Assembly: GCA_003650865.1 (NCBI GenBank)
Contig: QMSN01000001.1
Span: 1 to 28,338 of the forward strand
DNA length: 28,338 bases
Direction of reading: 5' to 3'
Origin: Thermoprotei archaeon
Lineage (GTDB): Archaea > Thermoproteota > Methanomethylicia > Nezhaarchaeales > WYZ-LMO8
In this document: piece after piece, positions 10,750 to 26,982 of the stretch
Layout: each line of letters begins with the position of its first letter
Position numbering within the stretch: the first letter of the stretch is position 1
The notes under the pieces: generated by a model
Seen by the model: the letters and a program-made list of their open reading frames with translations, nothing else
Told to the model about the DNA's origin: nothing
The model's database searches: none
Translations under genes and position numbers: made by a program

Positions 10750-12130
10750 GACCCTTCACCTCCAGATACGCTTTGTACTCAGTCCTAGGCTTGATCTCCC
10801 CCGCTATGTTCGTGAGCATAAGCCTCTTTACCTCATCTATGCTGCTGGCGTTAGCTAAGCACCACATGAGCTTAACTAAAGCAGTCTCAGGCAACATGTC
10901 TTCACAAGGTATGACGCCCATCCTCAAGAGCTCGACGCCAGTCCTGTACACATTCATGTTGACCCTCCCCCACAGGCACTGAGACGTCATGGCCACTACG
11001 ATGCCTGCATCTACAAGCTTTCTTATGGAGGGAAATACGTAGCTGGGCGTGTGGCCAAGACCCGTGCCCTCTATGACAACTCCTCTAAAGCCAGACTCCA
11101 AGACCCACTCTAAAGCCTCAGCTGGTATGCCGGGATACACCTTGATGAGCGCGGCCCTACTATCAAACCTCGGCTTAACGACAAAGTCCTCTTTCGTACC
11201 GCGGGGTTTTAGGTTGCTGGCCAACACGACAACATCTCTACCCCCTATGACCTTCGCTATGGGCTTGTCGTTTACAGCTTTAAAGGCATCCCTTCTACTC
11301 GTATGGCATTTCCTAACTTTAGCTCCACGGTATACCGCTAACACGTCGTCGCTTATGTTCTCGTGCATGACAACTACGACTTCAGCAAAGGGAGCACGGG
11401 ATGCTACGGCTGTTGCCCCCATCATGTTTAGTGCTGCGTCGGACGAAGGTCTATCAGACGACCTCTGAGCACCCACCAAAGCCACTGGTATGGGCAAGCC
11501 TTGTAGAGCGAAACTCAAGGCTGCGGCGGTGTAACCCATCGTGTCGGTTCCGTGGGCTATTACAACACCATCAACTCCGCTCTCAACCTCTTTAGCCACA
11601 GCTTCAGCTATCTTGGTCCAGTATTCAGGCCTCATGTCCTCGCTGAAGATGTTAAATATGGTCTTGGTGTTTATGACAGCTATCTCGTTGAGCTCAGGAA
11701 TCGACTCGTAGAGGTCCTCAGTCGTCAGTGAGGGATAGACGGCTCCAGTCTTGTACTCCACTTTACTGGCTATCGTGCCGCCTGTACCAAGAACTGTGAC
11801 CCTAGGTAGACCTCCTCTCGAGATTTGTTGAAGAGCCCTCTCTACCACGCTTGGAGAAGCTTTAGACACAAGCTGAACCTCAACCTCCTTAAGTCTAAAA
11901 CCTATGTTGTAGCCGTTGTCGAGCTTTATTACTATGTAGTCATCTCCTAGTACCTCGGTCCTTGGCATGAGGAGGCCTTCGTAGACAGCGTCACCCTTCA
12001 CGACCTTAACCCTATCGTAAACCCCTATCCCCTTCACTTCGAGTGGTGCTGGGACTTCAGAGCCACCACTAGACGGCAAGCTACACACCACTCGTAGAAG
12101 AAGCCTAAAACTAGAAAAGCTTGCTGTCAC
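10742..12130 (-). CDS. gatD: Glutamyl-tRNA(Gln) amidotransferase subunit D; carries a candidate 60-nt BHB intron near the 5' end (alternative start TTG at 12079)
   Basis: KLDNGYNIG, GTGGTIAS, HGTDTM, QRSSDRPSSD and HTSRRDAF asparaginase-like motifs; adjacent to gatE. Confidence 0.96.
   Translation of the reverse strand: MTASFSSFRLLLRVVCSLPSSGGSEVPAPLEVKGIGVYDRVKVVKGDAVYEGLLMPRTEVLGDDYIVIKLDNGYNIGFRLKEVEVQLVSKASPSVVERALQQISRGGLPRVTVLGTGGTIASKVEYKTGAVYPSLTTEDLYESIPELNEIAVINTKTIFNIFSEDMRPEYWTKIAEAVAKEVESGVDGVVIAHGTDTMGYTAAALSFALQGLPIPVALVGAQRSSDRPSSDAALNMMGATAVASRAPFAEVVVVMHENISDDVLAVYRGAKVRKCHTSRRDAFKAVNDKPIAKVIGGRDVVVLASNLKPRGTKEDFVVKPRFDSRAALIKVYPGIPAEALEWVLESGFRGVVIEGTGLGHTPSYVFPSIRKLVDAGIVVAMTSQCLWGRVNMNVYRTGVELLRMGVIPCEDMLPETALVKLMWCLANASSIDEVKRLMLTNIAGEIKPRTEYKAYLEVKGLE
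12035..12094 (-). other. Candidate BHB mRNA intron in gatD (60 nt, in frame)
   Basis: Canonical geometry on the mRNA strand: outer helix CUU/AGG, central 4-bp helix CUUC/GAAG, 3-nt bulges UAC and UGA, inner 8-bp helix GAGUGGUG/CACCACUC. Canonical cuts fall on codon boundaries. Confidence 0.6.
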
Positions 12131-12179
12131 GTAGGCGTAGCTCTAGCTATCAGTAAAGGATTCTGGAGACTAGGAGGAG

Positions 12180-12329
12180 CTAAGCTCTCTGCTGCGCGTA
12201 CGCTACTCTCCTAATGTACTTCTTGTGGTTCTTAATTCGTGGTATGGGCGTCCTCTTGGGCTTAGGAGGTATCTTGGGCGTCTGCGTCCTAACCTTACCA
12301 GCCTTTGTCAGTGAGCCGTGGGACGGCAT
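12180..12329 (-). CDS. rps30e: 30S ribosomal protein S30e (49 aa; below ORF-track cut-off)
   Basis: Manual translation [49 protein letters not shown] carries the HGSL.KAGKVR.QTPK signature; SD GGAGG upstream. Confidence 0.96.
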
Positions 12330-12366
12330 GTAGACCGACCTCCATTCAAGGAGGAGCGGGAGCCTA

Positions 12367-12380
12367 CATATAAAGATATT
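12367..12380 (-). promoter_or_regulatory. BRE/TATA of rps30e
   Basis: Minus-strand AATATC-TTTATATG about 40 nt upstream of the ATG, followed by the SD. Confidence 0.6.
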
Positions 12381-12403
12381 GCGTCACGCCTACGAGCTAC
12401 GAG

Positions 12404-13222
12404 TTAAGGATTTATGGGGAGCCTCTCGCCTGAAGAGGTTCTGCTAAATGTTCCAAACTCCTTCATCCTCTTAAGCCTCGAAGAGCTGAAGACGGGTCCA
12501 TCACTACACAACCTGAAGCCATCTATGAGGCACGAGCCGCACACGCCTAAAGCACACTTAACATACCTCTCGAGAAGCATCTGATGAGGTATACCTAGCT
12601 TCAGAAGGAGCCTATGGAGTTTAAACAGCATGGGCTCTGGACCACAGGCATAGACGTAAGAGAACCTTATTTTCTCTAGGAGGAGGCGTGAGGCGTCAAC
12701 AGATGTACCCTTAACCCCTGCAGTACCGTCATCAGTTGCCACAGTCACCTTCTCTTCGCCAAGCAACCTTGACAACTCATCTGTATGCACCAAATCGCTG
12801 GACGACTTAGCTCCAACAACCACGTAGACGTCTCTACGAGACTCAGAGAGTTGCTTTACCAACGGTATTAAGGGTGCTGTGCCCACACCACCCCCTACAA
12901 TTAGGATAGGTGACTTTGAGGTGAACCTAAAGCCATTACCATAAGGGCCACGCATGAATATCATGTCACCAACAGCACGTGAAGCCAAAGCCCTAGTCCC
13001 ATCACCCCTTACCACAAAGGTGAGGCGTACCTCACCCTTAGACTCATCAATGCTTGAAGGGGATAGAGGGAACTCATCGATGCTCGGCAACCATACCATG
13101 AAGAACTGCCCCGGCTTAACCCTTGGAGCAAAGCCCAAGCACTTAAGCCTTAACGAGTATGTGTTCCTCGCCACGCACTCCTTCGATGCAACCTTAAACC
13201 TAACGTAGTACGACATGTCCAA
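12404..13222 (-). CDS. pyrK: Dihydroorotate dehydrogenase electron transfer subunit
   Basis: PGQFFMVW, RGPYGNGF, GGGVGTAP, ACGPEPM and C.LGVCGSC...C.DGPVF 2Fe-2S motif; adjacent to pyrD. Confidence 0.92.
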   Translation of the reverse strand: MDMSYYVRFKVASKECVARNTYSLRLKCLGFAPRVKPGQFFMVWLPSIDEFPLSPSSIDESKGEVRLTFVVRGDGTRALASRAVGDMIFMRGPYGNGFRFTSKSPILIVGGGVGTAPLIPLVKQLSESRRDVYVVVGAKSSSDLVHTDELSRLLGEEKVTVATDDGTAGVKGTSVDASRLLLEKIRFSYVYACGPEPMLFKLHRLLLKLGIPHQMLLERYVKCALGVCGSCLIDGFRLCSDGPVFSSSRLKRMKEFGTFSRTSSGERLPINP

Positions 13223-13225
13223 CCC

Positions 13226-14131
13226 TCAATGAGCTGCTCCCACTATCTCCTTCAGGTCTCTAATGCCCTCTTCCTCCATGAAATTCTCGATGCCCCTTAT
13301 GATCTCCTTAAATAGCTTCAACCCCCTCTTACGTATAGCTGTTCCTATCTGAACAGCGCGTGCACCTGCCAGCATGTACTCAATGACGTCCATCCAAGTG
13401 TTTACACCTCCAACACCTATGAGGGGTATCTCGAAGTTCTCGTAGAGGTCGTATATCACTCTCAAAGCTATGGGCTTCAAGGAGGGTCCAGAAAGCCCAC
13501 CATATATCGAGGATAGGACTGGCCTCTTGGCCCTTATGTCTATGGCCATGGACCTTATGGTGTTGATGGCTGTTATAGCCGAGGCGCCATGCTTAACAAC
13601 AGACTCAGCCACGCTCAACAAGTTGCTCTCAAACCCTAACTTAACAAAAACCGGTACTGGCGATATGTCGCACACCTCCTTGACGACTCGTCCAGCGAGC
13701 TTAGGATCCTCAGAGAAAGCTTTGGTCTCAGCTACATGTGGGCACGAGAGGTTCAGCTCAATGGCCTTTGCCAGACCTGACTCCACAATTATCTTAACGG
13801 CTCCAACATAGTCTTCAATCCTGAAGCCAGCTACGCTGAACACCACTGGGATATTGGATAACTCATCCCTAATAGAAGTGCACTCCTCAAGGAAACGATG
13901 AACCCCTGGATTAGCTAGCCCAATAGCGTTAATCAAGCCATAACCTAGGTCAACTATCACGGGGTTGACATTCCCCGCTCGAGGAGTTAACGTTAGAGAC
14001 TTTGTGACTACAGCACCTGCACCTGCTTTATAGGCCTTGAGGAGCATTGAGGGGGTTGTGCCGAGTACGCCAGAAGCAAGCATAAGAGGGTTTCTAATGG
14101 TTAGTGATGATATGTTAACAGCTAAGCTCAT
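13226..14131 (-). CDS. pyrD: Dihydroorotate dehydrogenase, family 1 catalytic subunit
   Basis: NPLMLASG, TKS, NAIGLANPG, ELNLSCPH, INT, GGLSG and GVGGV. Confidence 0.95.
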   Translation of the reverse strand: MSLAVNISSLTIRNPLMLASGVLGTTPSMLLKAYKAGAGAVVTKSLTLTPRAGNVNPVIVDLGYGLINAIGLANPGVHRFLEECTSIRDELSNIPVVFSVAGFRIEDYVGAVKIIVESGLAKAIELNLSCPHVAETKAFSEDPKLAGRVVKEVCDISPVPVFVKLGFESNLLSVAESVVKHGASAITAINTIRSMAIDIRAKRPVLSSIYGGLSGPSLKPIALRVIYDLYENFEIPLIGVGGVNTWMDVIEYMLAGARAVQIGTAIRKRGLKLFKEIIRGIENFMEEEGIRDLKEIVGAAH

Positions 14132-14151
14132 ACCTTCCCTCTAGTTATTAT

Positions 14152-14168
14152 GAAAACAGTTATATATT
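14152..14168. promoter_or_regulatory. Probable bidirectional TATA region between divergent pyrD and nop5
   Basis: GAAAACAG-TTATATATT sits about 30 nt from the pyrD ATG on the minus strand and is also oriented for nop5 transcription. Confidence 0.45.
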
Positions 14169-14238
14169 ATCATGGCTCAATCCATACTATGTAGTTAACC
14201 TAGCCTGTTAGTGTATTCATGTCGTGGGGAGGTAGTGC

Positions 14239-15456
14239 ATGAAGGGTTTCGTCGTGTGCACATTCATGGGCTTACTTGCATATGATGAGAAGGGCAACCT
14301 CTTGGAGAAGGCGCTATTTCCAGGAGACCCTCTACAGCAGGCGAATAGGCTTTACGCCTTGGGTAGAGGGGAGATCGTAGATGAAATTAAGGTGTTGAGC
14401 GATAAGCTCAGGGAGAGGGGGGTTGACGAGCTCGTCTTTGAGAGTGACGTCCTAGCAAAAGCCTTCATGGACATGGGGTTCAGAAATGTGAAGGTTGAAG
14501 CGCCTAACGAGATAGCTAAGCTCGCTAGAACACAGTTACTAAAGCTTGCTGTAGAGCTTGGAGTCGCTGGGAGCGAGGAAGAGGCCCTTAAAGCCCTCCA
14601 TAGGGTTGCCTACGACTTAAGCGCTAAGAAGATGGTTGAAGCAGTTGAGAAACGAGATCTCTTAGTAGCTCAAGCAGTGTCCTGTATAGATGAAGTTGAG
14701 AAGATGATCAATATTCTTGCCTCTAGGCTGAGAGAGTGGTATGGTGTTCACTTCCCAGAGCTTGGAACCATGATTAAGGACCATGAGGACTACATAAGGG
14801 CTCTGAGGTTGATAGGTCACCGTGATAATGTTGTGAAGAAGAACTTACTCGAGGCCCTAGGCCCCATTAAGGATAAAGTCTTGAAATTCGTGGAGAGCGG
14901 AGCCACGTCGCTTGGAGCTGATGTGCTGCCCAAGGACATAGACATAATAAGAGAAGTAGCATCTATAGCGCTGGATCTCTACAGGTTAAATGACAAGTTA
15001 AAGCAGTACGTCAATGAAGTAATGGGCGAGGTCGCTCCCAACCTAAAGGAACTCATAGGCCCCGTCTTAGGTGCAAGGCTTATAGCATTAGCCGGGGGAC
15101 TCGACAGGCTCGCCAAGTTGCCAGCTAGCACGATACAACTGTTAGGTGCCGAAAAGGCGCTATTCAGAGCCTTGAGAACTGGAAGCAAACCGCCCAAACA
15201 TGGAATAATATTTCAGCATCCCGAAATTCACAGGTCACCACGCTGGCAGAGAGGTAAAATCGCAAGAGCCCTAGCTGGAAAGATTGCTATAGCTGCACGA
15301 GTCGACTACTTCTCAGGCGAGTACATAGCCGACGAGCTCAAAGAGGACTTGAGAAGGAGGATTAAGGAAATCAAAGAGACGTATAAGACACCTCCCAAGA
15401 GGGTTATAGAGAAGAAGAGGAAGAAGGAGAAAAGGAGGAAGAGAGGGAAGAGGTGA
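14239..15456 (+). CDS. nop5: C/D box sRNP protein Nop5 (Nop56/58)
   Basis: RLREWYG.HFPEL, APNL..LIGP.LGARLIA, QLLGAEKALF, PKHGIIF, RGKIARALA and a basic tail. Confidence 0.96.
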   Translation: MKGFVVCTFMGLLAYDEKGNLLEKALFPGDPLQQANRLYALGRGEIVDEIKVLSDKLRERGVDELVFESDVLAKAFMDMGFRNVKVEAPNEIAKLARTQLLKLAVELGVAGSEEEALKALHRVAYDLSAKKMVEAVEKRDLLVAQAVSCIDEVEKMINILASRLREWYGVHFPELGTMIKDHEDYIRALRLIGHRDNVVKKNLLEALGPIKDKVLKFVESGATSLGADVLPKDIDIIREVASIALDLYRLNDKLKQYVNEVMGEVAPNLKELIGPVLGARLIALAGGLDRLAKLPASTIQLLGAEKALFRALRTGSKPPKHGIIFQHPEIHRSPRWQRGKIARALAGKIAIAARVDYFSGEYIADELKEDLRRRIKEIKETYKTPPKRVIEKKRKKEKRRKRGKR

Positions 15457-16151
15457 GAGGCTTGAGAGTTAAACCTCATGAGAAGTTTGAGGGGTTATAC
15501 GTAGTTGAGATGGACGACGGCACCGTCAAGCTCGCCACGAGGAACTTAGCGCCGGGCGTCAAGGTTTACGGCGAGATGCTCATAGAGCATGAGGGCATGG
15601 AACTCAGAGTGTGGGACGCCTACAGGTCTAAGCTAGCTGCAGCTCTCTTGAAGGGGCTTAAGACCTCCCCCCTGAAGAGTGGGTTGAAGGTGCTCTACTT
15701 GGGGGTAGCCTCGGGAACCACGTGCTCACACGTATCAGATATTGTCGGCGAGTCCGGTAGGGTCTATGGCGTTGAGTTCTCGCCTAGAGTTATGAGGGAG
15801 TTCCTAGAGAGAGTAGCTAGGTATCGACCTAACGTGATCCCAATACTTGCTGATGCCAGGTTCCCAGCTGAATACTCAAGCATAACAGAGGAGGTGGACG
15901 TGATATACCAAGACGTCGCGCAACCTTATCAGAGCAAGATACTCATAGACAACGCCGACTTTTACTTGAAGAAGGGTGGATGGGCCTTCTTAGCCATTAA
16001 AGCTAGGAGCATAGACGTCACGAAGGAGCCCTCAGAGGTCTACAGGAAGGAGATGGAGGCTCTGAAGGATGGAGGTTTTGAGATAATAAACGTAGTGCAT
16101 TTAGAGCCTTACGACGTGGATCACGCCATGATATTGGCGCGTAGGGTGTAG
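15453..16151 (+). CDS. flpA: Fibrillarin-like rRNA/tRNA 2'-O-methyltransferase
   Basis: GVKVYGE, RVWDAYRSKLAA, VLYLGVASGTT.SHVSD and YQDVAQP; overlaps the nop5 stop. Confidence 0.96.
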   Translation: MRGLRVKPHEKFEGLYVVEMDDGTVKLATRNLAPGVKVYGEMLIEHEGMELRVWDAYRSKLAAALLKGLKTSPLKSGLKVLYLGVASGTTCSHVSDIVGESGRVYGVEFSPRVMREFLERVARYRPNVIPILADARFPAEYSSITEEVDVIYQDVAQPYQSKILIDNADFYLKKGGWAFLAIKARSIDVTKEPSEVYRKEMEALKDGGFEIINVVHLEPYDVDHAMILARRV

Positions 16152-16160
16152 GCAATAACC

Positions 16161-16598
16161 ATGTTCTCTGACAGGTCATTTAATAGGTTCACCAGGATAC
16201 TTAGTAGGGAGATAGAGAGGATAAACGATCATCTACCGCGTGAGAGCAAGACGCTCCGTGAGCTACTATCTATGGATGAACCGAAGGTGATAACGAGGCG
16301 AGGAGACGAGCTCGTAATGGATAAGGACGAGCTAAGGCTGCTGGCTGAGCTGACCCCCCCTCATTACCACGATAAGCTGAGGTTGCCTATACTCATCCTC
16401 AGGAGGATCGACATGGGTGAAGGCGTATACGTGTTATGTGGAGGCGAGCTAGAAGCGCATGTGATAAGCAGAGTTTTGAGTGAAAGCAGTTTGCCCAGAG
16501 ATAAAGGCAAAATACTCTTGTATAGGCCTCACATAGCATTTCTCAGAAGTAAGCTTAGAACTACAACAGTTATAGGGTTCGTCGCTGATATAACTTAG
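16161..16598 (+). CDS. DUF61-family conserved archaeal protein
   Basis: IN.HLP...TL.ELL..D.P and LRLPI.I pattern; located directly after fibrillarin. Confidence 0.7.
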   Translation: MFSDRSFNRFTRILSREIERINDHLPRESKTLRELLSMDEPKVITRRGDELVMDKDELRLLAELTPPHYHDKLRLPILILRRIDMGEGVYVLCGGELEAHVISRVLSESSLPRDKGKILLYRPHIAFLRSKLRTTTVIGFVADIT

Positions 16599-16606
16599 CG
16601 AGAGGT

Positions 16607-17599
16607 GTGCTGGTATTGCCTCTCGAGAAGCTTCTGGCCGAGGCCATTGAGGCACTCTGGGAGAAAGGGTTTGAGGTCTCAAGGCCCTATATGAATGAGA
16701 GAAGCTCAATAAACGTCGTCGCAAGAGGAGGAGAGAAGCTCATTTTAGTTAGAGTGCTAGACGACCTCTGCGAGCTAAAGAGCACCTACGCCTTAGAGAT
16801 GAGGAAAGCTGGCTACGCGCTTCAAGCCTCCCCTCTCGTGGTCAGTGAGAAAGAAGATGCTGAGGAGATGGAGAGAGAAGCTGTTTATGAGAAGTTCGGC
16901 GTATACGCCGTTCATCCAGAGGCTTTAAAGAGCTACTTGGAGGGAAAGCCTCAGTACGTGTATTATAAGGGTGGCAGGTTTTACGTTAAGATCGACGGTA
17001 GAAAGCTCCGAATGATAAGGGAGAGAGCAGGCCTCTCTCTAGGCAGGCTAGCCTCACTCCTCAAGGTCTCTAGGAAAGCTGTCTACGAGTACGAGCGTAA
17101 CGGCATGGATGCAACAATAGACATAGCCATGAGGCTTTACGAAGTCCTAAGGAACATCGTCGGCGAGGAGGAAGCCATGGAGCCCTTCAAGCCCATAGAC
17201 ATAATGCCGAGAGAGTACAGCGGGGAGAACTTAGTGTCTGAGGATAGAGCTGAGACGTGGTCTAAGAGGTATAGGTTTCAAGAGGAGGTCGCGTTAAAGC
17301 TCACAAGGCTTGGTTTCTCGGTTTTCAAGTTCAAGGAGGCACCATTTAACTTAATAGCCAAGAAGAAGGACGGCAACGGCAGAAGCACTCTCTTGATACT
17401 GACCATAGAGGCTTTGACCAAGAGGGCCAAGGAGGAAGTCGAGATACTTAAAGAGGTGGCGGAGGTTGCTAAGGTTGGGGGGCTCATCATAACGCGTAGA
17501 GCGATAAGAGAGGAGAGCGATGGCATAATATCGACCAAGAAGCTCGAGCATATAGATAGCCCAGAAGAGCTCATTGAGGTCACTACGTCGACTGGCTAA
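16607..17599 (+). CDS. Archaeal HTH (XRE/HTH_3) putative transcriptional regulator, COG1395-like
   Basis: Central IDG.KLR.IRE..GLSLG.LA..L.VSRKAVYEYE HTH flanked by two alpha/beta domains. Confidence 0.8.
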   Translation: MLVLPLEKLLAEAIEALWEKGFEVSRPYMNERSSINVVARGGEKLILVRVLDDLCELKSTYALEMRKAGYALQASPLVVSEKEDAEEMEREAVYEKFGVYAVHPEALKSYLEGKPQYVYYKGGRFYVKIDGRKLRMIRERAGLSLGRLASLLKVSRKAVYEYERNGMDATIDIAMRLYEVLRNIVGEEEAMEPFKPIDIMPREYSGENLVSEDRAETWSKRYRFQEEVALKLTRLGFSVFKFKEAPFNLIAKKKDGNGRSTLLILTIEALTKRAKEEVEILKEVAEVAKVGGLIITRRAIREESDGIISTKKLEHIDSPEELIEVTTSTG

Positions 17600-18767
17600 T
17601 AGTCTGAATGGTTTTGCAAAGCTCCTCTAAGCGACCGTTAAACCTCACGGCCTTAGGGTTGAAGTGGGTAACCGTAGCCTCAAACCCTCTCGCCGAAAGT
17701 TCATCCACAAGGAGCCTCACCTTAGGCTGCTTGAGCTTAAAGCGGCTTGAGATGACATCTATGGTGAAGTAGGTTGGAGGTCCTTCACACTCCTCGAGTA
17801 TGAGGCTCAGCGTCTTGGCAAGTTGCCTCTTCGTCGGCAAATTCTTTCTATAGAGGATCTTAAGCATCTCAGCGCAGAACTCCTTGTTGAAAAGAGGGCC
17901 TATCCAAAGAGGGCCCGCTATGCTCATGCTCTTTCCACATATGGGACACGTGGTTCTACGCAGGTCTTTAAAGGCTAAGAGCTCTCTATGCAGACACTGG
18001 AAGCAATGAGCTATGAAGCCCATGTGTTCCGTGTGCAACCCCCTATAATGCTTATCTAGCTCTACGAAGACCCTTACGTAGTGCATTGTGCTGTGACATG
18101 TGAGAGGCTTAATCGTTAAGTCATACTTACCTGCCTCTCTACACAAGAGGCCTAGCACGAGCCTAACAGCAACTTCATGGCAGTACTCTGTTCTGATGGA
18201 GAGGCCACCATACTTTCTCAAAGCGACTTCAGGATATACCCCGCACAAAGGGGGCATGTCCGTTGCGGTTACTGCTATAAGCCCACCTATACGAGTAGCC
18301 CTTATCGCAGAGTCCACGTATGGAGCTGGAGAACCGAAGGGATCTATGTCGGTGACTGAGAACCTTAAGTCCTTAGAGCTGTGGCTCGAGAGAACTTTGT
18401 TGGCGTCGCCTAGTTGAACCACGACCTTGTTGTTCAACCCGTTCAACAACGTGTTGAGCTCAGCGAAGGATATGGCTATGGGGTTCACATCACATATCAA
18501 GACCTCATCAGAGCCTTCAACCTCCTTCGCATACCTCAATCCTCTAATGCCACTGGCCGTCAGGGGCTCAGCTATTCTAAGCCTCTGAGACTTCAACTTG
18601 CTGAAAGCTTCCAGAGCACATATAGAGAAGTCCCTTGAGAAGACCATGACGTCGTTGTAGAAGACGATCTTTCGAGCTACTTCATCGCCTAACACCTCTC
18701 GATCTGGGAGGACTAGTTTCACCATCCCCTCTCTGTGGAGCCTTAAGGGTATCTTAGGGGTTGGCAT
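17583..18767 (-). CDS. trm1: tRNA (guanine26-N2)-dimethyltransferase
   Basis: VFYN..M...RD, SGIRGLRY, DIDPFGSP, TATD..PLCG, Zn-ribbon CxxC...CxxC and GPLWIGPL. Confidence 0.95.
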   Translation of the reverse strand: MPTPKIPLRLHREGMVKLVLPDREVLGDEVARKIVFYNDVMVFSRDFSICALEAFSKLKSQRLRIAEPLTASGIRGLRYAKEVEGSDEVLICDVNPIAISFAELNTLLNGLNNKVVVQLGDANKVLSSHSSKDLRFSVTDIDPFGSPAPYVDSAIRATRIGGLIAVTATDMPPLCGVYPEVALRKYGGLSIRTEYCHEVAVRLVLGLLCREAGKYDLTIKPLTCHSTMHYVRVFVELDKHYRGLHTEHMGFIAHCFQCLHRELLAFKDLRRTTCPICGKSMSIAGPLWIGPLFNKEFCAEMLKILYRKNLPTKRQLAKTLSLILEECEGPPTYFTIDVISSRFKLKQPKVRLLVDELSARGFEATVTHFNPKAVRFNGRLEELCKTIQTISQST

Positions 18768-18782
18768 ACCGTTTACTCCAAG

Positions 18783-19400
18783 CTAAGCCTCAATGCCTTT
18801 AAAGTTTAGGCACACGATGTATATCTCTCTGCTAGCCTTCTTAGAGGCTTTAGGTCTGTAGAGCTTAACAACACTAAAAGATTTCCTTAAGAGCCTTAGC
18901 ACGTCGTCGAGGCCCTCGCCTTGGAATGCCTTCACGACCATGTTGCCTCCTACCCTCAAAGCCTTATGGGCCAATCGCAGAGAACACTCGATTAGGAGAG
19001 CTTGTCTAGCTAAATCTGTACTCCACACGCCAGAGAGCTTAGGTGCTGCATCGGATATTACGGCGTCCGCCTTACGAGGAAGGGTCCTAAGCACTTCGCC
19101 GTGGACTTCTTCATCACAGATGTCGCCCTTCAAGACTATGAGATTAGGGACGCCCAGAGACTTGATGTCCCTAACGTCCACAGCCACAACGAGCCCTCTC
19201 TCACCTACAACGTTGAGAGCTACTTGAGACCAGCCGCCTGGGTAAGCACCTAGATCTACAACCACACTTCCCTCTTTGAACAACTTGAACTTCTCATTCA
19301 TCTCAATTAACTTGAAGGCAGCTCTAGACCTGTACCCCCTGCTCTTAGCCATTCTATAAAAGAAGTCCTTCAGCCTCTCCTTACCCCACCTTTTAGGCAT
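18783..19400 (-). CDS. rlmE: 23S rRNA (uridine2552-2'-O)-methyltransferase RlmE/FtsJ
   Basis: YRSRAAFKL, VVDLGAYPGGWSQ, VISDAAP, VKAFQG and KPKASR-like RPKASKK..REIY (K-D-K-E tetrad). Confidence 0.93.
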   Translation of the reverse strand: MPKRWGKERLKDFFYRMAKSRGYRSRAAFKLIEMNEKFKLFKEGSVVVDLGAYPGGWSQVALNVVGERGLVVAVDVRDIKSLGVPNLIVLKGDICDEEVHGEVLRTLPRKADAVISDAAPKLSGVWSTDLARQALLIECSLRLAHKALRVGGNMVVKAFQGEGLDDVLRLLRKSFSVVKLYRPKASKKASREIYIVCLNFKGIEA

Positions 19401-19412
19401 TAGCCACCCCTT

Positions 19413-19778
19413 TTAGTCGTCCTTTAAGAGCCAAGCCGTGAGATCCTCGCAGTTCTCAGGGTTTATGTGTTGTCCACTTCCACACCTGCTTAAGTTCATG
19501 CAGGAGAAGCATGGACAACCCTCAACGGTCTCTAGGCTTACCTTGAGGTCGCTAGAAGTCGCCACCAACTTAAAGGTCTTCCATCGATCTTGAGCCACGG
19601 GCTCCCTTATGATCAAGCCCCTCTTCTCGAGGGTTAAGGCTATGCGTGAGCCCTCGCGACTACTAACCTTCAAGATCTTCCATAAATCCTTCTGTAAAAT
19701 GCCGTCTGGACCCGCCTTCCTTATGATGTCGAGCGCTTTTGCGTAGATGTCCTCAGCTGCCTTCGTCTTGCGCTTCAT
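19413..19778 (-). CDS. RPC34/RPC39-like winged-helix + Fe-S protein (TFE beta-type transcription factor)
   Basis: GILQKDLWK wHTH and C-terminal CPCFSC.....C..........C cluster; downstream of tfb as in the known crenarchaeal arrangement. Confidence 0.85.
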   Translation of the reverse strand: MKRKTKAAEDIYAKALDIIRKAGPDGILQKDLWKILKVSSREGSRIALTLEKRGLIIREPVAQDRWKTFKLVATSSDLKVSLETVEGCPCFSCMNLSRCGSGQHINPENCEDLTAWLLKDD

Positions 19779-19785
19779 AAAGAAA

Positions 19786-20715
19786 TTATATGGTTACTAT
19801 AAATTCAAGCTTTCGCATGAGCTCCTGATACCTGTTTCTTATTGTGACCTCTGTAACGTTCGCGGATGAGGCTATGTCCCTCTGAGTGCACTTTACATGT
19901 TGAAGTATGCTGGCGATGTATATCGAAGCGGCTGCTATGCCCATGGGGCCGCGCCCAGAGGTCAGGCCCATGTCCCTAGCTCTCTCAAGTATCGCTATAG
20001 CCAGCTTCTGAACCTCGTGAGGGAGGTTGAGCTTGTTTACGAGGCGAGGAATGAAGTTTATGGAAGCCATAGGCGTAACCTTAGCCACAAGGGTCTTCAA
20101 TAGGAGTCTATAGCTCCTCCCTATCTCCCTCTTCTTTATGTTAGATGCTTGAGATATCTCGTCTAGCGTTCTGGGAATCCTGTTCTGCCTACAAGCTGCG
20201 TATATGGCGGCGGCCACCATGCTCTCGATAGATCTACCCCTTATGAGCTTGGCCTCCACCATCCTTCTGTAAAATATGGCTGCGCTCTCCCTCACGTTCC
20301 TCGGCAAGCCCAGCTGAGAGGATATTCTATCGAGCTCTGAGAGAGCAAAGGTGAGGTTCCTCTCAAATGCGTTGGAAACCCTAGACCTCTGCTGCCACTT
20401 CTTCAGCTTATATATCTGTATCCTCCTAGCTGGGCTCATGGAGCGCGACGACTTATTGCTGCTATGCCAGTCTATTATCGTTGAGAGGCCCTTATCGTGT
20501 ATAGTTAGTGTGAGGGGGGCTCCAGCTCTAGCCCTTCTATCCTGTTGTTCTGAGTCGAAAGCTCTCCACTCTGGACCTAGATCTATAAGCCTCTCGCCTA
20601 TGACTAAGCCGCACCTAGCACAAGCCATCTCAGCTCGGTCATAGTCCCTAAAAAACTCTGTGCTTCCGCACTCAGGACATCTAAACTCGGGTTCATCGGT
20701 CGGAACTCCCTTCAT
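19786..20715 (-). CDS. tfb: Transcription initiation factor IIB
   Basis: CPECG...CARCG Zn ribbon, ID.GPEWRAF B-reader, two cyclin repeats, and TEVTIRNRY. Confidence 0.97.
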   Translation of the reverse strand: MKGVPTDEPEFRCPECGSTEFFRDYDRAEMACARCGLVIGERLIDLGPEWRAFDSEQQDRRARAGAPLTLTIHDKGLSTIIDWHSSNKSSRSMSPARRIQIYKLKKWQQRSRVSNAFERNLTFALSELDRISSQLGLPRNVRESAAIFYRRMVEAKLIRGRSIESMVAAAIYAACRQNRIPRTLDEISQASNIKKREIGRSYRLLLKTLVAKVTPMASINFIPRLVNKLNLPHEVQKLAIAILERARDMGLTSGRGPMGIAAASIYIASILQHVKCTQRDIASSANVTEVTIRNRYQELMRKLEFIVTI

Positions 20716-20990
20716 CTCCTCTGCCTCCTAGTTTTAACTCCAACCTTCACCTCTACGTAGAGTTTCTTCAGCTGGCGGAGGTCATGGGGGCTTAACCCCT
20801 TAGATGGCTTAACCACCACGTAGGGCGAGGAGGTGGGGCCTATTATATCGTAAACTGAGCCTACAACCCTGAACTTACCGTTATAAACAGGGTCGCCGAT
20901 TCGAGGTATGACCTTGCTGGCTTTAACTATTATGTTGTTGTTCCGTGAAATATGCTTGATCACGCCAAGCGACGTGAGGGGTTCCCCCAT
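20712..20990 (-). CDS. gar1: H/ACA RNP protein Gar1
   Basis: LG...H, V...G.V.DIIGP...PYVVVKP; directly upstream of tfb. Confidence 0.88.
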   Translation of the reverse strand: MGEPLTSLGVIKHISRNNNIIVKASKVIPRIGDPVYNGKFRVVGSVYDIIGPTSSPYVVVKPSKGLSPHDLRQLKKLYVEVKVGVKTRRQRR

Positions 20991-21016
20991 GACTGGGGAA
21001 ACCTTAAAGCAATCTA

Positions 21017-21032
21017 ATATAAAAATTTCTTA
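21017..21032 (-). promoter_or_regulatory. BRE/TATA for the gar1-tfb operon (near-leaderless)
   Basis: Minus-strand AAGAAAT-TTTTATAT about 27-33 nt upstream of the gar1 ATG. Confidence 0.6.
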
Positions 21033-21099
21033 AGGCTATTCCATAACCAGCGAAGTATTGCTAACGATTTTCTCGTAAGCTATAAAGGAATCCTACGTA

Positions 21100-21402
21100 T
21101 TACGAGCGTGCTCTTCTATTCTCTTGAATCTTCTTGGCTATGGCTATTAGCAAGCTCCTCTTGGACCCCACCTTCTTCACTAAAACTCTCGACGTCTCCT
21201 CCCACCACCAGGAGGGGTGCACCTTCTCCTCAACTTCCGGCTCTAGTCCTAGCTGAGAAGCTGCTTGCACTATCTCCTCGACCTTAGGTGAGGTTACGGC
21301 GTACTTCTTAGGTATCTTTCTACCCCTAGACTCCGACTTACTTGAGTCTAGGTAGCAGCAGTACACGATAACTCTATCCCTATCCCCTAAGATGAGGGTC
21401 AC
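21100..21402 (-). CDS. srp19: Signal recognition particle 19 kDa protein
   Basis: YLDS..S...GRKIPK..AV..P...EI..AA..LG, HP..WW and K..LL..IA. Confidence 0.92.
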   Translation of the reverse strand: MTLILGDRDRVIVYCCYLDSSKSESRGRKIPKKYAVTSPKVEEIVQAASQLGLEPEVEEKVHPSWWWEETSRVLVKKVGSKRSLLIAIAKKIQENRRARS

Positions 21403-21794
21403 GCCCCGCCTCCAGTTATGAGGACTGCGTTGACGACGCCGTCCTGTCCAGGTCTAGACGTAACCCTCGCAAGGCCCTTCTCAGTCTCTATGATGGCCCC
21501 TCTAGTGATCACGCCTCTACGTGAGTAGTCAACGCTAGCTGGGTTCTCCCTCACGCCTAGTATCCTCAGCTTGTAGGCCTTATGGGTCTCGGGGTCCATA
21601 ACGTTGGCGTACATGACGTACTTCAAGCCCACCTTGTAGTTGCCCCCGCGAACCCTCCTTATTATCCTAGTCTCCTTGTCTGAAGGCAAGGGCTCAAGGG
21701 GTTCTCTGCCAAGCTCATACTTCCTCTTCTTCCTGTGAGGCCTAAACTTGCCTCCAGTGGGCTTCCTAAGATCTCCACCATGGTATTGCGGCAC
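21399..21794 (-). CDS. rps8e: 30S ribosomal protein S8e
   Basis: RKPTGG...RKKRKYELGR, RVRGGN.K, ITRGAIIET, ARVTSRPGQDGVVNAVL. Confidence 0.97.
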   Translation of the reverse strand: MPQYHGGDLRKPTGGKFRPHRKKRKYELGREPLEPLPSDKETRIIRRVRGGNYKVGLKYVMYANVMDPETHKAYKLRILGVRENPASVDYSRRGVITRGAIIETEKGLARVTSRPGQDGVVNAVLITGGGA

Positions 21795-21887
21795 CTATCA
21801 GACACCTCTACCTTGACTATCGCTTCATGTGGTGAGGGAAAATTCAATAGGAGGGGATATAAGCTTTATGCACATGAGGGTCTACAT

Positions 21888-22913
21888 ATGGCGACAGGCG
21901 ATGTACTACTAGCTCACGGTGCCGGCGGAACCGTCATGGTGGACCTCATAAAGAGCTTGATAATCCAGAATATCAAGAGGAGGAGGGTCTACGACGGGCT
22001 TGGGCTTGACGAGATGGATGATGGAGCCTCCTTACCGCTAGGCGACTACGAGGTCGTGCTCACCATGGATGGACACACAGTGGATCCCATATTCTTCCCG
22101 GGAGGCGACATAGGGAAGCTGGCCGTGGCCGGAACCATAAACGACTTGGCTGTGATGGGTGCAAAGCCTCTGGCAATAATGGACTCAATAGTCGTTGAGG
22201 AGGGGTTCCCTCTACAGAAACTAGAGAGGATTGTGAGGTCCATGAACGACGTGGCCGAGGAGGTAGGGGTCGCCATAGTCCACGGCGACTTCAAGGTCAT
22301 GCCGCGCGGCAAGATAGATAAGATAGTCGTGAGCACAGCTGGCGTGGGACTTGCTAAGAGAGGGTGTTTGCTGAAGGACTCGAACTTGAAGGTTGGGGAT
22401 AAGGTCATAGTCTCTGGCTTCATAGGAGATCACGGCATAGCCCTAGCCTCAGTTAAGGAGGGTATCGAGTTTGAGGCTAAGCTTGAGTCCGACGTAGCCC
22501 CCATATGGGACGTCATGGAGGCCGCGCTGGGCATTGGAGGAGTCCACGCAGCCAAAGATCCCACTAGAGGTGGGCTCTCCATGGCTCTAAACGAAATGGC
22601 CTCTAAGTCCGGGTTGTGCATATGGATTAGGGAGATAGATGTCCCTGTGAGAGATGATGTTAAAGCTGCATCTGAAATGTTGGGCCTCAACCCCTTCGAG
22701 GTCACGTGTGAGGGTGTAGCGGTCATAGTTGTTGAGAGAGAAGTTGCTGAGGAGGTTCTCGAAGCCGTTAGGAAGACGAAGCATGGAGCCTACGCCTCGA
22801 TAATAGGTGAGGTGCGCGAAGAGCCTAAGGGGAAGGTGGTGCTCGAAACACTCGTTGGAGGGAGGAAGCTGTTAGAGCCCCCTCTAGGAGAGCCTACGCC
22901 GAGGGTGTGTTGA
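21888..22913 (+). CDS. hypE: Hydrogenase maturation carbamoyl dehydratase HypE (true start ATG 21888; the ORF-track start at 21735 runs into rps8e)
   Basis: LAHGAGG, DD.A, D.HTV.PIFFPGGDIG.LAV.GT.NDLAV.GA, KDPTRGG and C-terminal PRVC. Confidence 0.93.
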   Translation: MATGDVLLAHGAGGTVMVDLIKSLIIQNIKRRRVYDGLGLDEMDDGASLPLGDYEVVLTMDGHTVDPIFFPGGDIGKLAVAGTINDLAVMGAKPLAIMDSIVVEEGFPLQKLERIVRSMNDVAEEVGVAIVHGDFKVMPRGKIDKIVVSTAGVGLAKRGCLLKDSNLKVGDKVIVSGFIGDHGIALASVKEGIEFEAKLESDVAPIWDVMEAALGIGGVHAAKDPTRGGLSMALNEMASKSGLCIWIREIDVPVRDDVKAASEMLGLNPFEVTCEGVAVIVVEREVAEEVLEAVRKTKHGAYASIIGEVREEPKGKVVLETLVGGRKLLEPPLGEPTPRVC

Positions 22914-24022
22914 GCATGGAGAATGCTGTGCCAGAACGCGTTATTGAGGACAGGCTTAAGAGGATCTTGGATTTAGCGTCGAGAGAGGGCTTAGAGTACG
23001 TCCTGTTAGCGCAGCCGGAGAACGTTCAGTACGCAACGGGTTTTGACGTGGTCGGCAATCCCCCTAAGACAGCTTACGCGCTTGTAGCTGAGAGCCTTGA
23101 AGGGCCTATACTCATGGTTCCACCGCTTGAGTACAAGGAGGCAGTTGACACGGTTAGCCCGCTCGTGAAGGTGGTGTCATTCAAGCTCGGTGAGAAGCCT
23201 CTGAAAGCTCTGCTGAGGTTGTTGGTGGAATACCAAGTTAGGGGTTGCGTGGGGCTTGACCTTTGCACCCGCGAGATGGCTGATGGCTTAAGGGCCAAGC
23301 TTGAAGTGCGGGAAGTCAAAGACCTTAACGATGGGCTCTTAAAGCTGCGAGAGGTCAAGGACTCCTACGAGGTTGAGTGCATAAGGCAGGCTACGAGGGT
23401 CGTCGAGGCAGGTCTTCAGAGGGCTTATGAGGTTTTGAGGGAGGGAGTCAGGGAGGTTGACGTAGCAGCTGAAGTGGAGAGGGCCTTGAGGATCGAGGGG
23501 GCTGAGGGCATGGCCTTTGACACCATAGTCGCCTCAGGGCCACGGTCAGCCTATCCTCACGCTAAGCCCACCAAGAGGGTCATCAAGAGGGGGGAGGTGG
23601 TCGTCGTAGACCTAGGGGTTAGAGTGCACGGCTACTGCTCTGACATGACTAGGACCTTCATCGTCGGAGAGAATCGAGAGGCCTCGCAGGTGATAGCAGC
23701 CGTTAAAGGAGCTCAGGAGGCGGCGCTCAAAGTCATGAGGGATGGCGTCAAGGCCTCGACGCCGGACGCAGAAGCTAGGAGGGCTCTGAAGGAGAAGGCG
23801 CTCGACGAGTACTTTATTCACAGCCTCGGTCACGGGGTAGGGCTCTCAGTTCACGAAGGTCCTGCGCTGTCATCCTCTAGCAACGACGTGTTGAGAGAGG
23901 GCAACGTCGTAACCGTGGAGCCAGGGGTTTACATCCCGGGTAAGTTTGGGGTTAGGTTAGAGGACGTCGTCTTAATTAATAAAGGAGGGTGGAGTAGAAT
24001 ATCGAGGCTGGAGGGTTTATGA
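22907..24022 (+). CDS. pepQ: Xaa-Pro aminopeptidase/prolidase (M24B)
   Basis: Creatinase N-domain, then VDLG...GYCSDMTRT, HSLGHGVGL.VHE, TVEPGVY and RLEDVV. Confidence 0.9.
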   Translation: MLSMENAVPERVIEDRLKRILDLASREGLEYVLLAQPENVQYATGFDVVGNPPKTAYALVAESLEGPILMVPPLEYKEAVDTVSPLVKVVSFKLGEKPLKALLRLLVEYQVRGCVGLDLCTREMADGLRAKLEVREVKDLNDGLLKLREVKDSYEVECIRQATRVVEAGLQRAYEVLREGVREVDVAAEVERALRIEGAEGMAFDTIVASGPRSAYPHAKPTKRVIKRGEVVVVDLGVRVHGYCSDMTRTFIVGENREASQVIAAVKGAQEAALKVMRDGVKASTPDAEARRALKEKALDEYFIHSLGHGVGLSVHEGPALSSSSNDVLREGNVVTVEPGVYIPGKFGVRLEDVVLINKGGWSRISRLEGL

Positions 24023-25587
24023 TGGAGTTTAGCTTGAAGGGGTACTTCACCTTCAACAAGCCGCTTCAAGGAGTTGAGGAAACTCTCAAGGAGGTTATTG
24101 ATGAGGCCAATAGGAGCATCCTCGTGAAGGGCGTGCCGAAGGGAAAGGAGGGTGAGGGTGCTAAGGTAACTGCTTGGAGGATTGAGGACGGAAAACTCTA
24201 CGTGGAGATATCCTCTGGGAGGTACGTGAGGGCTCACGATGCCCTCTTCAGGCTTAGGAAGCTCATAGGTGCAGAGCTGGGTAAGAGGCATAGGATAGGC
24301 GTGAGAGGCTTTGAGGTCTTGAACTACGTCATCAAGGTCCCAGGCTTCAAGGGGGACTTGAGCGAGGTTGAAGACCTCTTAGGCGACCGTGGAGTAGCTG
24401 AACTCACAGGCGACCTATTGACCATAGAGCTCAGAGGCGTCGAGGAAAGCGACTTAGAGGCTAGGATAGTGGATAGGCTCGTGAAGGCCCTCGTCAAGCC
24501 CGAAGCTGAGGTAGAGGCTCCTAAAGCCCTCCTAGTACCCTTCGGCCACGTAATCGAGCAGTCAAGCCCCAAGCCTGTGAAGTTTAACCTCGAAGTCGCC
24601 AGCGAAGCAGAGAAAAGGAGCTGGATAAAGAGGTTCCCAGCTAGAGGACAGTGGATATTCACAGGGCCCATGGTAGGCCTCCTAAAGGTGATGCGTGACT
24701 TAATAGTAGAGAACGTGTGTAGACCCCTAGGGTTTGAGGAGTGGATGTTCCCTAGGCTCATACCTCTAACCGTCCTCGAGAAGCTCTCAAGCTACGTTGA
24801 ACACCTCCCCGAGGGAATGTTCTACGTCTGTGTACCCCCACGAGACCCCTCAGCATTCGATGAGTACAAGAGGGAGTACACTCTGAAGAGGGTTTTGAGG
24901 AAGGACTTATTGAAGGACATACTGGGCGAACCCGAGTACGTGCTAGACGCCGTGCAATGCCCACCATTCTACCAGTTCTTCAGCAGCGAAACCGTTAGGA
25001 TTGAGGAACTCCCCATAAAGGTGTACGAGTGCATGGGCGGCTGGACTTGGAGAAATGAGGCTGGAGGAGTGGAGGGCCTTGCCAGGACCAACGAGTTCTG
25101 GCGCATGGAGATGGTGTACCTAGGGGCACCCAGCGACGTGGTCAAGATAAGGGAGGAGGTGGTCTCGAAGACGTTGAACCTCGTGGACAAGGTCTTAGAG
25201 CTCGAGTGGAGAGTTGTAGTAGGCGCGCCGTTTTACCTGTCGAGCGAGGAAGCTAAGAAGAGGAAGATCGACATATCGTCTAGGGACAAGATACCGACCA
25301 TAGACATTGAGTGCTACTTGCCTTATCGAGGTAAGAGGGAAGAGGCGGAGTGGCTTGAGATAACGGCTGCCAGTGTCCACTACAAGCACTACGTCTCAGC
25401 CTTTAGGATAAAGGAAGTTAAGGGCAGGGAGATATGGACTGGCTGCACGGGGCATGGCCTCACAAGGTGGGCTACCGCCTTCCTAGCCCAACACGGCTTC
25501 GACCCATCCAACTGGCCTAGCGCTGTCAGAGATAGGTTTGAGAAGTATGGGCCATATAGGCAAGTCAAAACGCTTGAGTGGCCATAA
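24019..25587 (+). CDS. serS: Seryl-tRNA synthetase, methanogen (rare) type
   Basis: N-terminal alpha/beta domain with SGRYVRAHDA, GQW motif, and Zn-ligand candidates in QCPPFY, NEFWRMEMV and WTGCTGHG. Confidence 0.92.
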   Translation: MMEFSLKGYFTFNKPLQGVEETLKEVIDEANRSILVKGVPKGKEGEGAKVTAWRIEDGKLYVEISSGRYVRAHDALFRLRKLIGAELGKRHRIGVRGFEVLNYVIKVPGFKGDLSEVEDLLGDRGVAELTGDLLTIELRGVEESDLEARIVDRLVKALVKPEAEVEAPKALLVPFGHVIEQSSPKPVKFNLEVASEAEKRSWIKRFPARGQWIFTGPMVGLLKVMRDLIVENVCRPLGFEEWMFPRLIPLTVLEKLSSYVEHLPEGMFYVCVPPRDPSAFDEYKREYTLKRVLRKDLLKDILGEPEYVLDAVQCPPFYQFFSSETVRIEELPIKVYECMGGWTWRNEAGGVEGLARTNEFWRMEMVYLGAPSDVVKIREEVVSKTLNLVDKVLELEWRVVVGAPFYLSSEEAKKRKIDISSRDKIPTIDIECYLPYRGKREEAEWLEITAASVHYKHYVSAFRIKEVKGREIWTGCTGHGLTRWATAFLAQHGFDPSNWPSAVRDRFEKYGPYRQVKTLEWP

Positions 25588-25651
25588 TCAATCTCTGAAA
25601 TCAAATGATGAAATAAAGTTGTAATTTTCGAGGGTTTGAGGAGGCTACTAT

Positions 25652-25786
25652 TCATTTAGGAGTGAAGCTGTCGCAGCTGTCAGCTGGAGTGGTCCATATG
25701 GACCTAGTCTTGCAGTAATTCTTCTCTAAGTCGTAGTTCTTGCAGTTGTAGCAAGAGCCCTTAACGAAGCCTATAGTTGCTGACAT
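25652..25786 (-). CDS. Small four-cysteine protein, 44 aa (not in ORF track)
   Basis: MSATIGFVKGSCYNCKNYDLEKNYCKTRSIWTTPADSCDSFTPK* (CX2CX9CX12C); SD GGGTGA 5 nt before the ATG; TATA-like TTTTTAAA upstream. Confidence 0.75.
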   Translation of the reverse strand: MSATIGFVKGSCYNCKNYDLEKNYCKTRSIWTTPADSCDSFTPK

Positions 25787-25817
25787 TAAGGTCACCCAGA
25801 GAAAGTTCCAAGCGTTA

Positions 25818-25834
25818 GTTTAAAAATTTTAAAC
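25818..25834. promoter_or_regulatory. Perfect inverted repeat overlapping the TATA box of the small Cys protein gene
   Basis: GTTTAAAA-A-TTTTAAAC (8-bp arms, 1-nt spacer). Confidence 0.45.
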
Positions 25835-25852
25835 AGGGTGAACAGCCGTTGC

Positions 25853-25915
25853 GGCGTCAGTCCGCCCATCATATATCATCGCTTGGGCTCTTAGACCGTC
25901 ATCTCTTCATCCGCC
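25853..25915 (-). ncRNA. Box C/D guide sRNA, predicted to guide 16S rRNA Cm1402 (E. coli numbering)
   Basis: GGCG-G-AUGAAGA(C)-GAUGACGGU-CUAA(D')-...-AUGAUAU(C')-AUGAUGGGCGGA-CUGA(D)-CGCC. It has a terminal 4-bp stem and K-turn geometry, and the D guide pairs over 10 bp with the conserved 16S CCGCCCGUCA. Confidence 0.85.
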
Positions 25916-25918
25916 ACC

Positions 25919-25946
25919 TAATTAATTAAAGAGGGCAGTTATTAAT
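25919..25946. promoter_or_regulatory. AT-rich divergent promoter region between the C/D sRNA and the DHH gene
   Basis: TAATTAATTAAA and TTATTAAT boxes in an otherwise GC-richer context, about 25 nt from plausible starts on each strand. Confidence 0.45.
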
Positions 25947-25986
25947 GTTCTGCGTGGAGGGGGGAGGCATTAAGCTTAGAGAGTTC

Positions 25987-26982
25987 ATGGAAGCTGGGCC
26001 CCTAATGGTGCTTGCACACGGCGATAGGCCTTGAGCCCGCCAGTCTGACGGTGTGTGCTCAGCTTCAATTGTGAAGCGGGTATTCGGCGAAGTCGAGTTG
26101 AAGTTCACTCAGCCTTCTAGGCTTCACAGGGATCTCGAGGCGTTGGCTTCAAGCCAGAAGCTCCACGCGAGCTCTCTCCTAATAGTTGATTTAGCCATCA
26201 ACGTCGATGTTGCCGAGCGCTTCGCCTCAGCCGTAAGACACCTCATGCAGAGGGGTGTTAAAATGGTGTATGTAGACCACCACCCCCCACCGGCTGGCAT
26301 TGAAATCCTCGGCTTTGCTGATGAGGTCATCGTGAATACTCGTGCCTCATGTTCTGAGCTCATATACCACCTATTCGCTGAAGGCGACGGCCACTCAGCT
26401 CTTTTAGCTGCTTATGGGGCTATAGCCGACTCATTCGACGACACAGAGTTCGTCAAGAGCCAGATGCTCAAGTGGGGTAAGGGAATCCTATACTTCGAGT
26501 CTGAGATGCTTAGCCTGGCGTTATTAGGCATGAAGGCAGTTGAGCTCACATCAGTAGCTGATGAGCTAGCGAGAGGCTTAAGGGTTGGACGCATAGACTT
26601 GGTGGTCACCAGGGCTATTAGGAACTTGAGGCTCGACTACGAGGTTCAGCGATACGTCGAGGAGAACGCTGTAATCGAGGGGCCCATAGCTCTAATCGAG
26701 GAGGTCCCTCAAAGAGGGTTTGCGGGTAGAGCTGCCAGCTACGCCTTATCACTAATCACTGGAGACGTGGGTATAGGGATTGCCTCGAGGTTCAACCGCG
26801 AGTTCGTTGAGTGCTCTCTTAGAGCTAGAGGAGTGGACTTAACAAGGTTCATGCCCGAGATAATAAGGGAGGTCGGGGGATCAGGTGGAGGACACCCCTA
26901 CGCCTACGGCGTCAGGGTTTCGGCTCAAAAGTATAAAGAGTTCCTCGAACTCTTAAAGCTTAGAGCGATGACATATGCTTAA
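25987..26982 (+). CDS. DHH/DHHA1 phosphoesterase (NrnA/RecJ-like), split by an 18-nt intron; start uncertain (in-frame ATGs at 25945, 25987, 26005)
   Basis: Exon 1 ends ...VLAHGD and exon 2 begins SDGVCSA..., giving motif I HGDSDG. IVD, YVDHH and GGSGGGH motifs follow downstream. The ORF-track product (26053) lacks motif I. Confidence 0.88.
26026..26043 (+). other. BHB/BHL-type mRNA intron (18 nt) with in-frame TGA
   Basis: GGCG/CGCC 4-bp central helix, 3-nt bulges AUA and AGU, inner hairpin GGC-CUUGA-GCC, outer helix GCACAC/GUGUGC. Canonical cuts AU^A and AG^U remove exactly AGGCCUUGAGCCCGCCAG. Confidence 0.85.

Follow-up and report, generated by a model that had tools for sequence, protein, structure and literature searches.

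The DNA analysed here, referred to as the window, is a stretch of 28,338 nucleotides (nt) that forms contig C1 of a metagenome-assembled genome (MAG; 1.25 Mb, 217 contigs, 72.7% completeness). The source is an uncultured hot-spring archaeon of the Thermoproteota, related to the Nezhaarchaeota and the sole member of its genus among species representatives. Among named relatives, a 'Candidatus Nezhaarchaeota' MAG comes closest, with 76% identity in exon 2 of the aIF2-gamma gene. The part under study reaches from gatD, on the minus strand (open reading frame (ORF) 10742-12130), to a gene for a DHH/DHHA1 phosphoesterase (ORF 26053-26982). An initial annotation had placed two mRNA introns of the bulge-helix-bulge (BHB) type within these 14 kb, one in each gene. 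Both elements are present, with ends exactly at 26026-26043 and 12035-12094, but the claim of two introns stands in one half: the DHH element probably is an intron, since its removal restores a motif as found in 18 homologues, whereas the gatD element appears to be coding sequence for a conserved VPxPL peptide. The features discussed are collected in Table 1.

Across the DHH site, the reading frame runs cac ggc gat / agg cct tga gcc cgc cag / tct gac ggt, and the unspliced peptide is ..LAHGD RP* ARQS DGVCSAS.., in which the TGA splits the catalytic motif. Excision of the 18 nt gives HGD-SDGVCSAS, in agreement with HGDxDG[IV]CS and its single residue between the aspartates in 18 of 18 same-class homologues, none of which carries an insert at motif I. 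Exon 2 shares about 30% identity with homologues of 318-333 amino acids (aa) that have no interruption. Six further independent assemblies, from different samples, carry an identical insert, so it is not an error of assembly; the frame is otherwise intact over 312 codons in all seven assemblies. In one of them, a population variant turns the second ATG of exon 1 (25986-25988) into ATA, so the start is likely to be the first ATG, at 25945. In public gene calls, the gene is broken up into two ORFs, one of 29 aa and one of 303 (or 309) aa; such introns therefore escape standard annotation and look like truncations, which bears out the earlier suspicion that annotations hide short introns.

In the predicted fold, GGCG (26020-26023) pairs with CGCC (26038-26041) to form the central helix H, which is flanked by two 3-nt bulges, AU/A (26024-26026) and AG/U (26042-26044), and encloses a small hairpin, GGC-cuuga-GCC (26027-26037). 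An outer helix, GCACAC/GUGUGC, is formed by 26014-26019 and 26053-26058, with eight unpaired nucleotides between the 3' bulge and GUGUGC. A descriptor scan located the element at exactly 26026-26043. The motif is of the relaxed HBh' type, a form also taken in this genome by the introns of aIF2-gamma, mtnA and cbf5. By a hand estimate, about four of the possible 18-nt excisions restore the DHH motif, and a 4-bp Watson-Crick helix H with a 3-bp inner helix occurs at about 6e-5 of such positions. By our own rough reckoning, the chance that the fold would fit a motif-restoring excision is about 1e-3 to 1e-4.

Whole-MAG scans made against the DNA of two relatives brought the number of interrupted protein genes to seven, all of them with the same core fold. 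The reference DNA was a complete genome of the same family (G005) and 800 kb of a more distant genome of the same class (G016), and it was used in two ways, as a motif-free reference and as a mask of conserved coding frames. In each of the six further genes, a Pfam match or a conserved motif continues across the junction. The introns of the MAG are 18, 18, 21, 25, 29, 29 and 32 nt long, and those of relatives 17-35 nt; they lie in phases 0, 1 and 2. The initial annotation had held that the introns are multiples of three and are cut at codon boundaries, and this regularity does not survive in the larger set, in which the lengths of 18-32 nt show no preference. It had also tied the hosts to RNA metabolism. 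Four of the seven fit (cbf5, uS5, aIF2-gamma and the eIF2B-family mtnA). The other three, hypD, purA and the uncharacterised DHH enzyme, fall outside, and the link is weak.

Table 1. Features of the window and of other interrupted genes in the MAG. Positions without a prefix are those of the window; C numbers denote contigs of the MAG.
Feature	Position	Strand	Description
DHH/DHHA1 phosphoesterase, exon 1, MFCVEGGGIKLREFMEAGPLMVLAHGD	25945..26025	+	27 codons; ATG at 25945; 3' end encodes HGD, first half of DHH motif I
Putative BHB-type mini-intron of DHH gene, AGGCCTTGAGCCCGCCAG	26026..26043	+	18 nt, in-frame TGA; from fold, motif restoration and likeness to six other introns
DHH/DHHA1 phosphoesterase, exon 2	26044..26982	+	312 codons and stop; Pfam DHH (model positions 13-104) and DHHA1
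Folded region around DHH intron	26014..26058	+	Minimum-free-energy fold and direct reading; outer helix GCACAC/GUGUGC non-contiguous
gatD 5' coding segment imitating a canonical BHB intron, probably not an intron	12035..12094	-	Strict motif by scan; encodes SEVPAPLEV
gatD (Glu-tRNA(Gln) amidotransferase subunit D), predicted uninterrupted	10742..12091	-	Pfam GatD_N, Asparaginase, Asparaginase_C; N-terminus alignment
aIF2-gamma intron	C12:9584-9615	-	32 nt; junction DCPGHE/MLMATML; GTP_EFTU 4-80 and 85-188
uS5 intron	C37:2990-3018	-	29 nt; junction KQTD/AGETSRF; exon 2 begins at Ribosomal_S5 position 17
mtnA/eIF2B-family intron (NCBIfam name)	C89:3824-3852	+	29 nt; junction LTHC/NAGALAT; IF-2B 2-114 and 117-280
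hypD intron	C52:1833-1857	+	25 nt; junction MHVCG/THEW; Pfam match begins at model position 28, directly after insert
purA intron	C208:1169-1186	+	18 nt; junction GDEG/KGKV; Adenylsucc_synt match 1-142 crosses TAG
cbf5 intron	C125:2057-2077	-	21 nt; excision restores GTL-D-PKVTG

All seven introns lie within codons of highly conserved motifs, namely the P-loop, the G3 motif, the catalytic Asp, DHH motif I, THCNAG, HVCGTHE and QKQTDAGE. A preference for conserved motifs is shared by inteins and homing introns. The purA insert (AGGCCTAGAGCC..) is built like that of the DHH gene: the two 18-nt introns have AGGCCT[T/A]GAGCC in common and otherwise differ only in the four exon-pairing bases. In a relative, the hairpin of the purA intron differs, and the likeness between DHH and purA may be due to chance. 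A search for a mobile 18-nt family with the pattern AGGC-N5-GCC gave 370 matches, few of them with a pairing helix H, and no family beyond DHH and purA was found.

The genome G005 is interrupted at the same six sites (all but DHH), and although the lengths and loops differ, the pairing is kept. Among the sampled relatives, interruptions with retained helices were found in 14 genomes for uS5, 10 for aIF2-gamma, nine for mtnA and 20 for cbf5. Compensatory changes that keep the helices are established for uS5 and were seen for cbf5, aIF2-gamma, mtnA, hypD and purA. In the uS5 alignment of 14 genomes, 97.3% of the cells are paired and eight of the 16 pairs have changed on both sides; none of 500 shuffles reached this, and slid controls were 16-43% paired. 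Both uS5 and aIF2-gamma are single-copy genes, and the only copy is the interrupted one, so the interrupted copy must yield the protein in each such genome.

The inserts might be bypassed at translation, by ribosome hopping, frameshifting or stop read-through, instead of being removed from the RNA, and they do resemble some recoding sites in being short and hairpin-forming. The uS5 insert, however, is 22-34 nt long among relatives, with lengths in every residue class modulo 3, yet its 4-bp helix, its bulges and the precise junction are retained. The junctions that were read show no matching codons for take-off and landing, and read-through of the DHH TGA would add six residues within the catalytic motif. 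The geometry is exactly that which the tRNA splicing endonuclease (EndA) cuts, as known for cbf5 (PMC2738675). Bypass is thus a very improbable explanation.

The distribution of the introns is nested. The cbf5 intron is wide and ancient, being widespread in the class with the exception of two families. The uS5 intron is present in two families (10 of 10 genomes of the family and four of the sister family) and was not found in the other families sampled. The aIF2-gamma and mtnA introns are confined to the family among the sampled relatives; the aIF2-gamma motif PGHE-LMATML is uninterrupted in 78 other archaea. Open frames suggest that the hypD intron occurs in the family and is missing from the sister family, and it is thus probably a third one of this range, while the DHH intron is found in this species only. 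Such a pattern points to a stepwise gain of introns in the lineage.

The MAG encodes the enzymes that splicing of this kind would need. There are two full-length EndA paralogues, of 188 aa (catalytic) and 182 aa (beta-like), which are 30% identical and are encoded on contigs C2 and C24. The fused alpha'2 model is matched in its catalytic half by one of them and in its structural half by the other, which also matches beta-subunit models and has, in a pairwise alignment, no His at the catalytic position. The architecture of EndA, a point that the initial annotation had raised, is by these matches the (alpha-beta)2, broad-specificity type. This architecture is known to accept relaxed motifs, the cutting of which needs an (alpha-beta)2 or epsilon2 enzyme (PMC5829648). 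RtcB is also encoded, and 21 of the 40 tRNA genes recognised by ARAGORN have introns. In the DHH pre-mRNA, the four exon bases GGCG would pair with the four intron bases CGCC, the heterotetrameric (alpha-beta)2 endonuclease would cut after the second base of each 3-nt bulge, and RtcB would ligate the exons; the resulting mRNA would encode ..LAHGD-SDGVCS.., with an intact catalytic DHH motif. What the genomes present directly is that genes are interrupted, that the inserts have the fold geometry described, that excision restores the motifs exactly, that relatives show conservation and covariation, and that the enzymes are encoded; from this we infer such cutting and joining of mRNAs in the cell. 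The lineage thus appears to splice many mRNAs with its tRNA splicing endonuclease, as had been proposed from the window on other grounds, and the proposal now draws on seven interrupted genes, six of them interrupted at the same sites in relatives.

As for the DHH gene itself, several points weigh against an intron. Its inner helix has only three base pairs and its outer helix is non-contiguous, and motifs this weak are common, at 2,666 per genome. A search of the nine other genomes of the family did not reveal the gene. Covariation support is lacking, as no divergent orthologue carries the intron and the insert shows no differences in the six other copies. By motif and ORF fusion alone, the DHH element is at chance level (63 such matches versus 63.8 expected), so that its support rests on homology, geometry and likeness to the validated introns. 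The differences within the population, five synonymous and four non-synonymous, are too sparse to reveal purifying selection. The count of seven introns is, moreover, a lower bound of unknown tightness, given the incompleteness of the MAG and the partial cover of the reference genomes.

These points could mean that an 18-bp insertion broke the DHH gene and left a pseudogene, or a shortened gene that makes at most the 303-aa product of the downstream ORF, the BHB-like fold being a coincidence. Gene callers do report the two separate ORFs, and the gene is dispensable insofar as the other family genomes go. However, the catalytic motif is regained residue for residue by the predicted cuts, whereas a protein of 303 aa would be without the HGD half of motif I, and the remaining frame has stayed open in all seven assemblies. 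Six other genes, essential single-copy ones included, have the same type of insert with covariation, and the purA insert shares the DHH build. A broken gene is therefore unlikely. We consider it quite probable that the DHH gene, at 25945-26982, is truly interrupted by an 18-nt BHB mini-intron, that the protein genes of this genome have at least seven such introns in all, and that gatD does not belong to the set.

The gatD element has the most canonical BHB fold of all. It is of the hBHBh' type, with a helix H of four Watson-Crick pairs (CUUC/GAAG), two 3-nt bulges (UA/C and UG/A), an inner helix of nine pairs (one of them G-U) and a 3-bp outer helix, and the predicted cuts would excise 60 nt, in frame and without a stop. 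Motifs of this strict grade are also threefold more frequent in the genome than in dinucleotide shuffles (14 versus 4-5). The element might therefore be a real intron too, constitutive or regulated, which EndA removes from a message that starts at GTG 12130 and yields MTASFSSFRLLL-KGIGVYDRV... In nine GatD proteins of the same family, however, which are 71-74% identical to that of the window, the N-terminus reads V-I-K-L-S-E-E-L-D-V-P-x-P-L-K-x-L-N-L-E-P-Y-D-R-V, while the unspliced window gene reads ..S-E-V-P-A-P-L-E-V-K-G-I-G-V-Y-D-R-V; the spacing from VPxPL to YDRV is seven residues in the window and in all nine. The genes of these relatives begin at the GTG equivalent to 12091 and have in-frame stops just upstream. 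Excision would delete the VPxPL N-terminus and substitute a peptide, the putative exon 1, that has no counterpart in any relative, and a comparable fold is absent from the nine same-family loci. About 10 of the 14 strict motifs in the genome, furthermore, fall in plain coding or antisense sequence, which amounts to about 0.2 expected per window. An intron in gatD is thus quite unlikely. Because the 60 nt encode the VPxPL that is conserved in the family, and because the relatives do not have the fold, gatD is, by alignment, uninterrupted, with a start near GTG 12091 (most likely 12091-12089; alternatives are GTG 12088 and TTG 12079), and its BHB shape is best explained as a chance hairpin together with coding constraint. 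The likely GUG starts (12086-12094, minus strand) lie inside the 5' arm of the BHB-like 9-pair helix, and the hairpin could limit translation initiation.

How far BHB motifs exceed chance depends on the descriptor, and the expectation that hits would outnumber those in controls held in part. A loose descriptor (4-bp H with at most one G-U, inner helix of at least three pairs) gave 310,194 matches genome-wide; those fusing ORFs numbered 15,439 versus 14,837 expected from locally shifted controls, and there was no enrichment at any motif strength, the noise being due to operon junctions. Short matches (14-40 nt) with both flanks in conserved frames were in excess, with 18 versus 6.6 expected for inner helices of at least five pairs and five versus 1.2 for those of at least seven. 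Two further cases came from a scan that used the lineage's bulge signature. Among long 'introns' of 81-200 nt between conserved flanks, there was no clear excess (1,630 versus 1,623 expected overall, and 47 versus 32 for the longest inner helices). A search for stops within alignments to G005 overlooked most introns, because G005 also carries them.

Several candidates from the scans were rejected. By Pfam, C111 (46 nt) joins an HMGL-like gene to a thiamine pyrophosphate (TPP) enzyme and C53 (62 nt) joins an iron-sulfur (FeS) gene to a DsrH gene, and in both instances two different genes are concerned. C30, C90 and C102 resemble gene starts, C85 is an antisense-frame artefact, and C29, C6, C9, C134, C48 and C31 were unconvincing. 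Outside the protein frames there are two strict BHB motifs, C79:4990-5024(-) and C25:3386-3437(-), with inner helices of 12 and eight pairs; the DNA of the latter is conserved with a relative and has no open frame. Either motif may mark an intron, in an RNA gene that lacks annotation or in a tRNA missed by ARAGORN.

Non-canonical tRNA introns with relaxed HBh' motifs have reportedly been described in Thermoproteota, by Marck and Grosjean in 2003 and by Sugahara in 2008. The introns found here are like these in having a 4-bp helix core, 3-nt bulges and an inner helix, and in the tRNA introns, too, the outer helix is often missing. They are unlike them in that the hosts are mRNAs, and the 5' strand of the central helix consists of conserved codons instead of tRNA bases. 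In protein genes, the known precedent is the intron of the cbf5 pre-mRNA of Crenarchaeota, a short BHB insert in coding sequence (Watanabe 2002; Yoshinari 2006; Yokobori 2009, PMC2738675). The present system resembles it in the position of the insert, in the hetero-oligomeric EndA of the host and in the restoration of a conserved catalytic motif by excision, and the cbf5 intron itself is 21 nt long in the present genome and occurs in most families of the class. The differences are the six further host genes (uS5, aIF2-gamma, mtnA-like, hypD, purA and DHH) and the lineage, which is Nezhaarchaeota-related and belongs to neither the Desulfurococcales nor the Sulfolobales. Among the papers searched, those up to 2020-2025 name cbf5 as the sole BHB case in coding sequence (PMC7714728; PMC12397907), and in the literature searched we could not find any paper that links Nezhaarchaeota with introns. 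In Haloferax volcanii, the HVO_1309 mRNA has a 46-nt BHB intron in its 5' untranslated region, which was found via circular RNA and confirmed in vitro (PMC7714728). That case also has an mRNA as the substrate of the splicing endonuclease, with EndA acting beyond tRNA and rRNA; it interrupts no reading frame, however, whereas the introns described here are read from the genes and interrupt coding sequences.

Endonuclease-spliced introns in archaeal coding sequences have so far been treated as a curiosity of one gene, cbf5. If the present reading is true, archaeal gene expression can regularly include protein-only splicing of mRNAs. Two of the hosts (uS5 and aIF2-gamma) are single-copy and essential. 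Interrupted genes of this kind are called as fragments or pseudogenes in MAGs, and completeness estimates and metabolic reconstructions are distorted as a result. Dated gains, together with one very recent gain, make the origin of such introns open to study. The nested distribution, the sites in conserved motifs and the near-identical hairpins of DHH and purA would together hint at an insertion that was repeated and site-selective, by reverse splicing or a homing-like route, and was not one frozen accident. We put forward only tentatively, as a possibility that falls short of being probable, that an active process plants BHB mini-introns in protein genes of this lineage, and that splicing by EndA and RtcB is routine for a dozen or more mRNAs, including those of the ribosome and of initiation factors.

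Elsewhere in the window, the gene at 24019-25587 (plus strand) encodes a class II aminoacyl-tRNA synthetase, the N-terminal domain of which matches Pfam PF18490 (tRNA_bind_4). We take this to be the domain of the rare methanogen-type seryl-tRNA synthetase.

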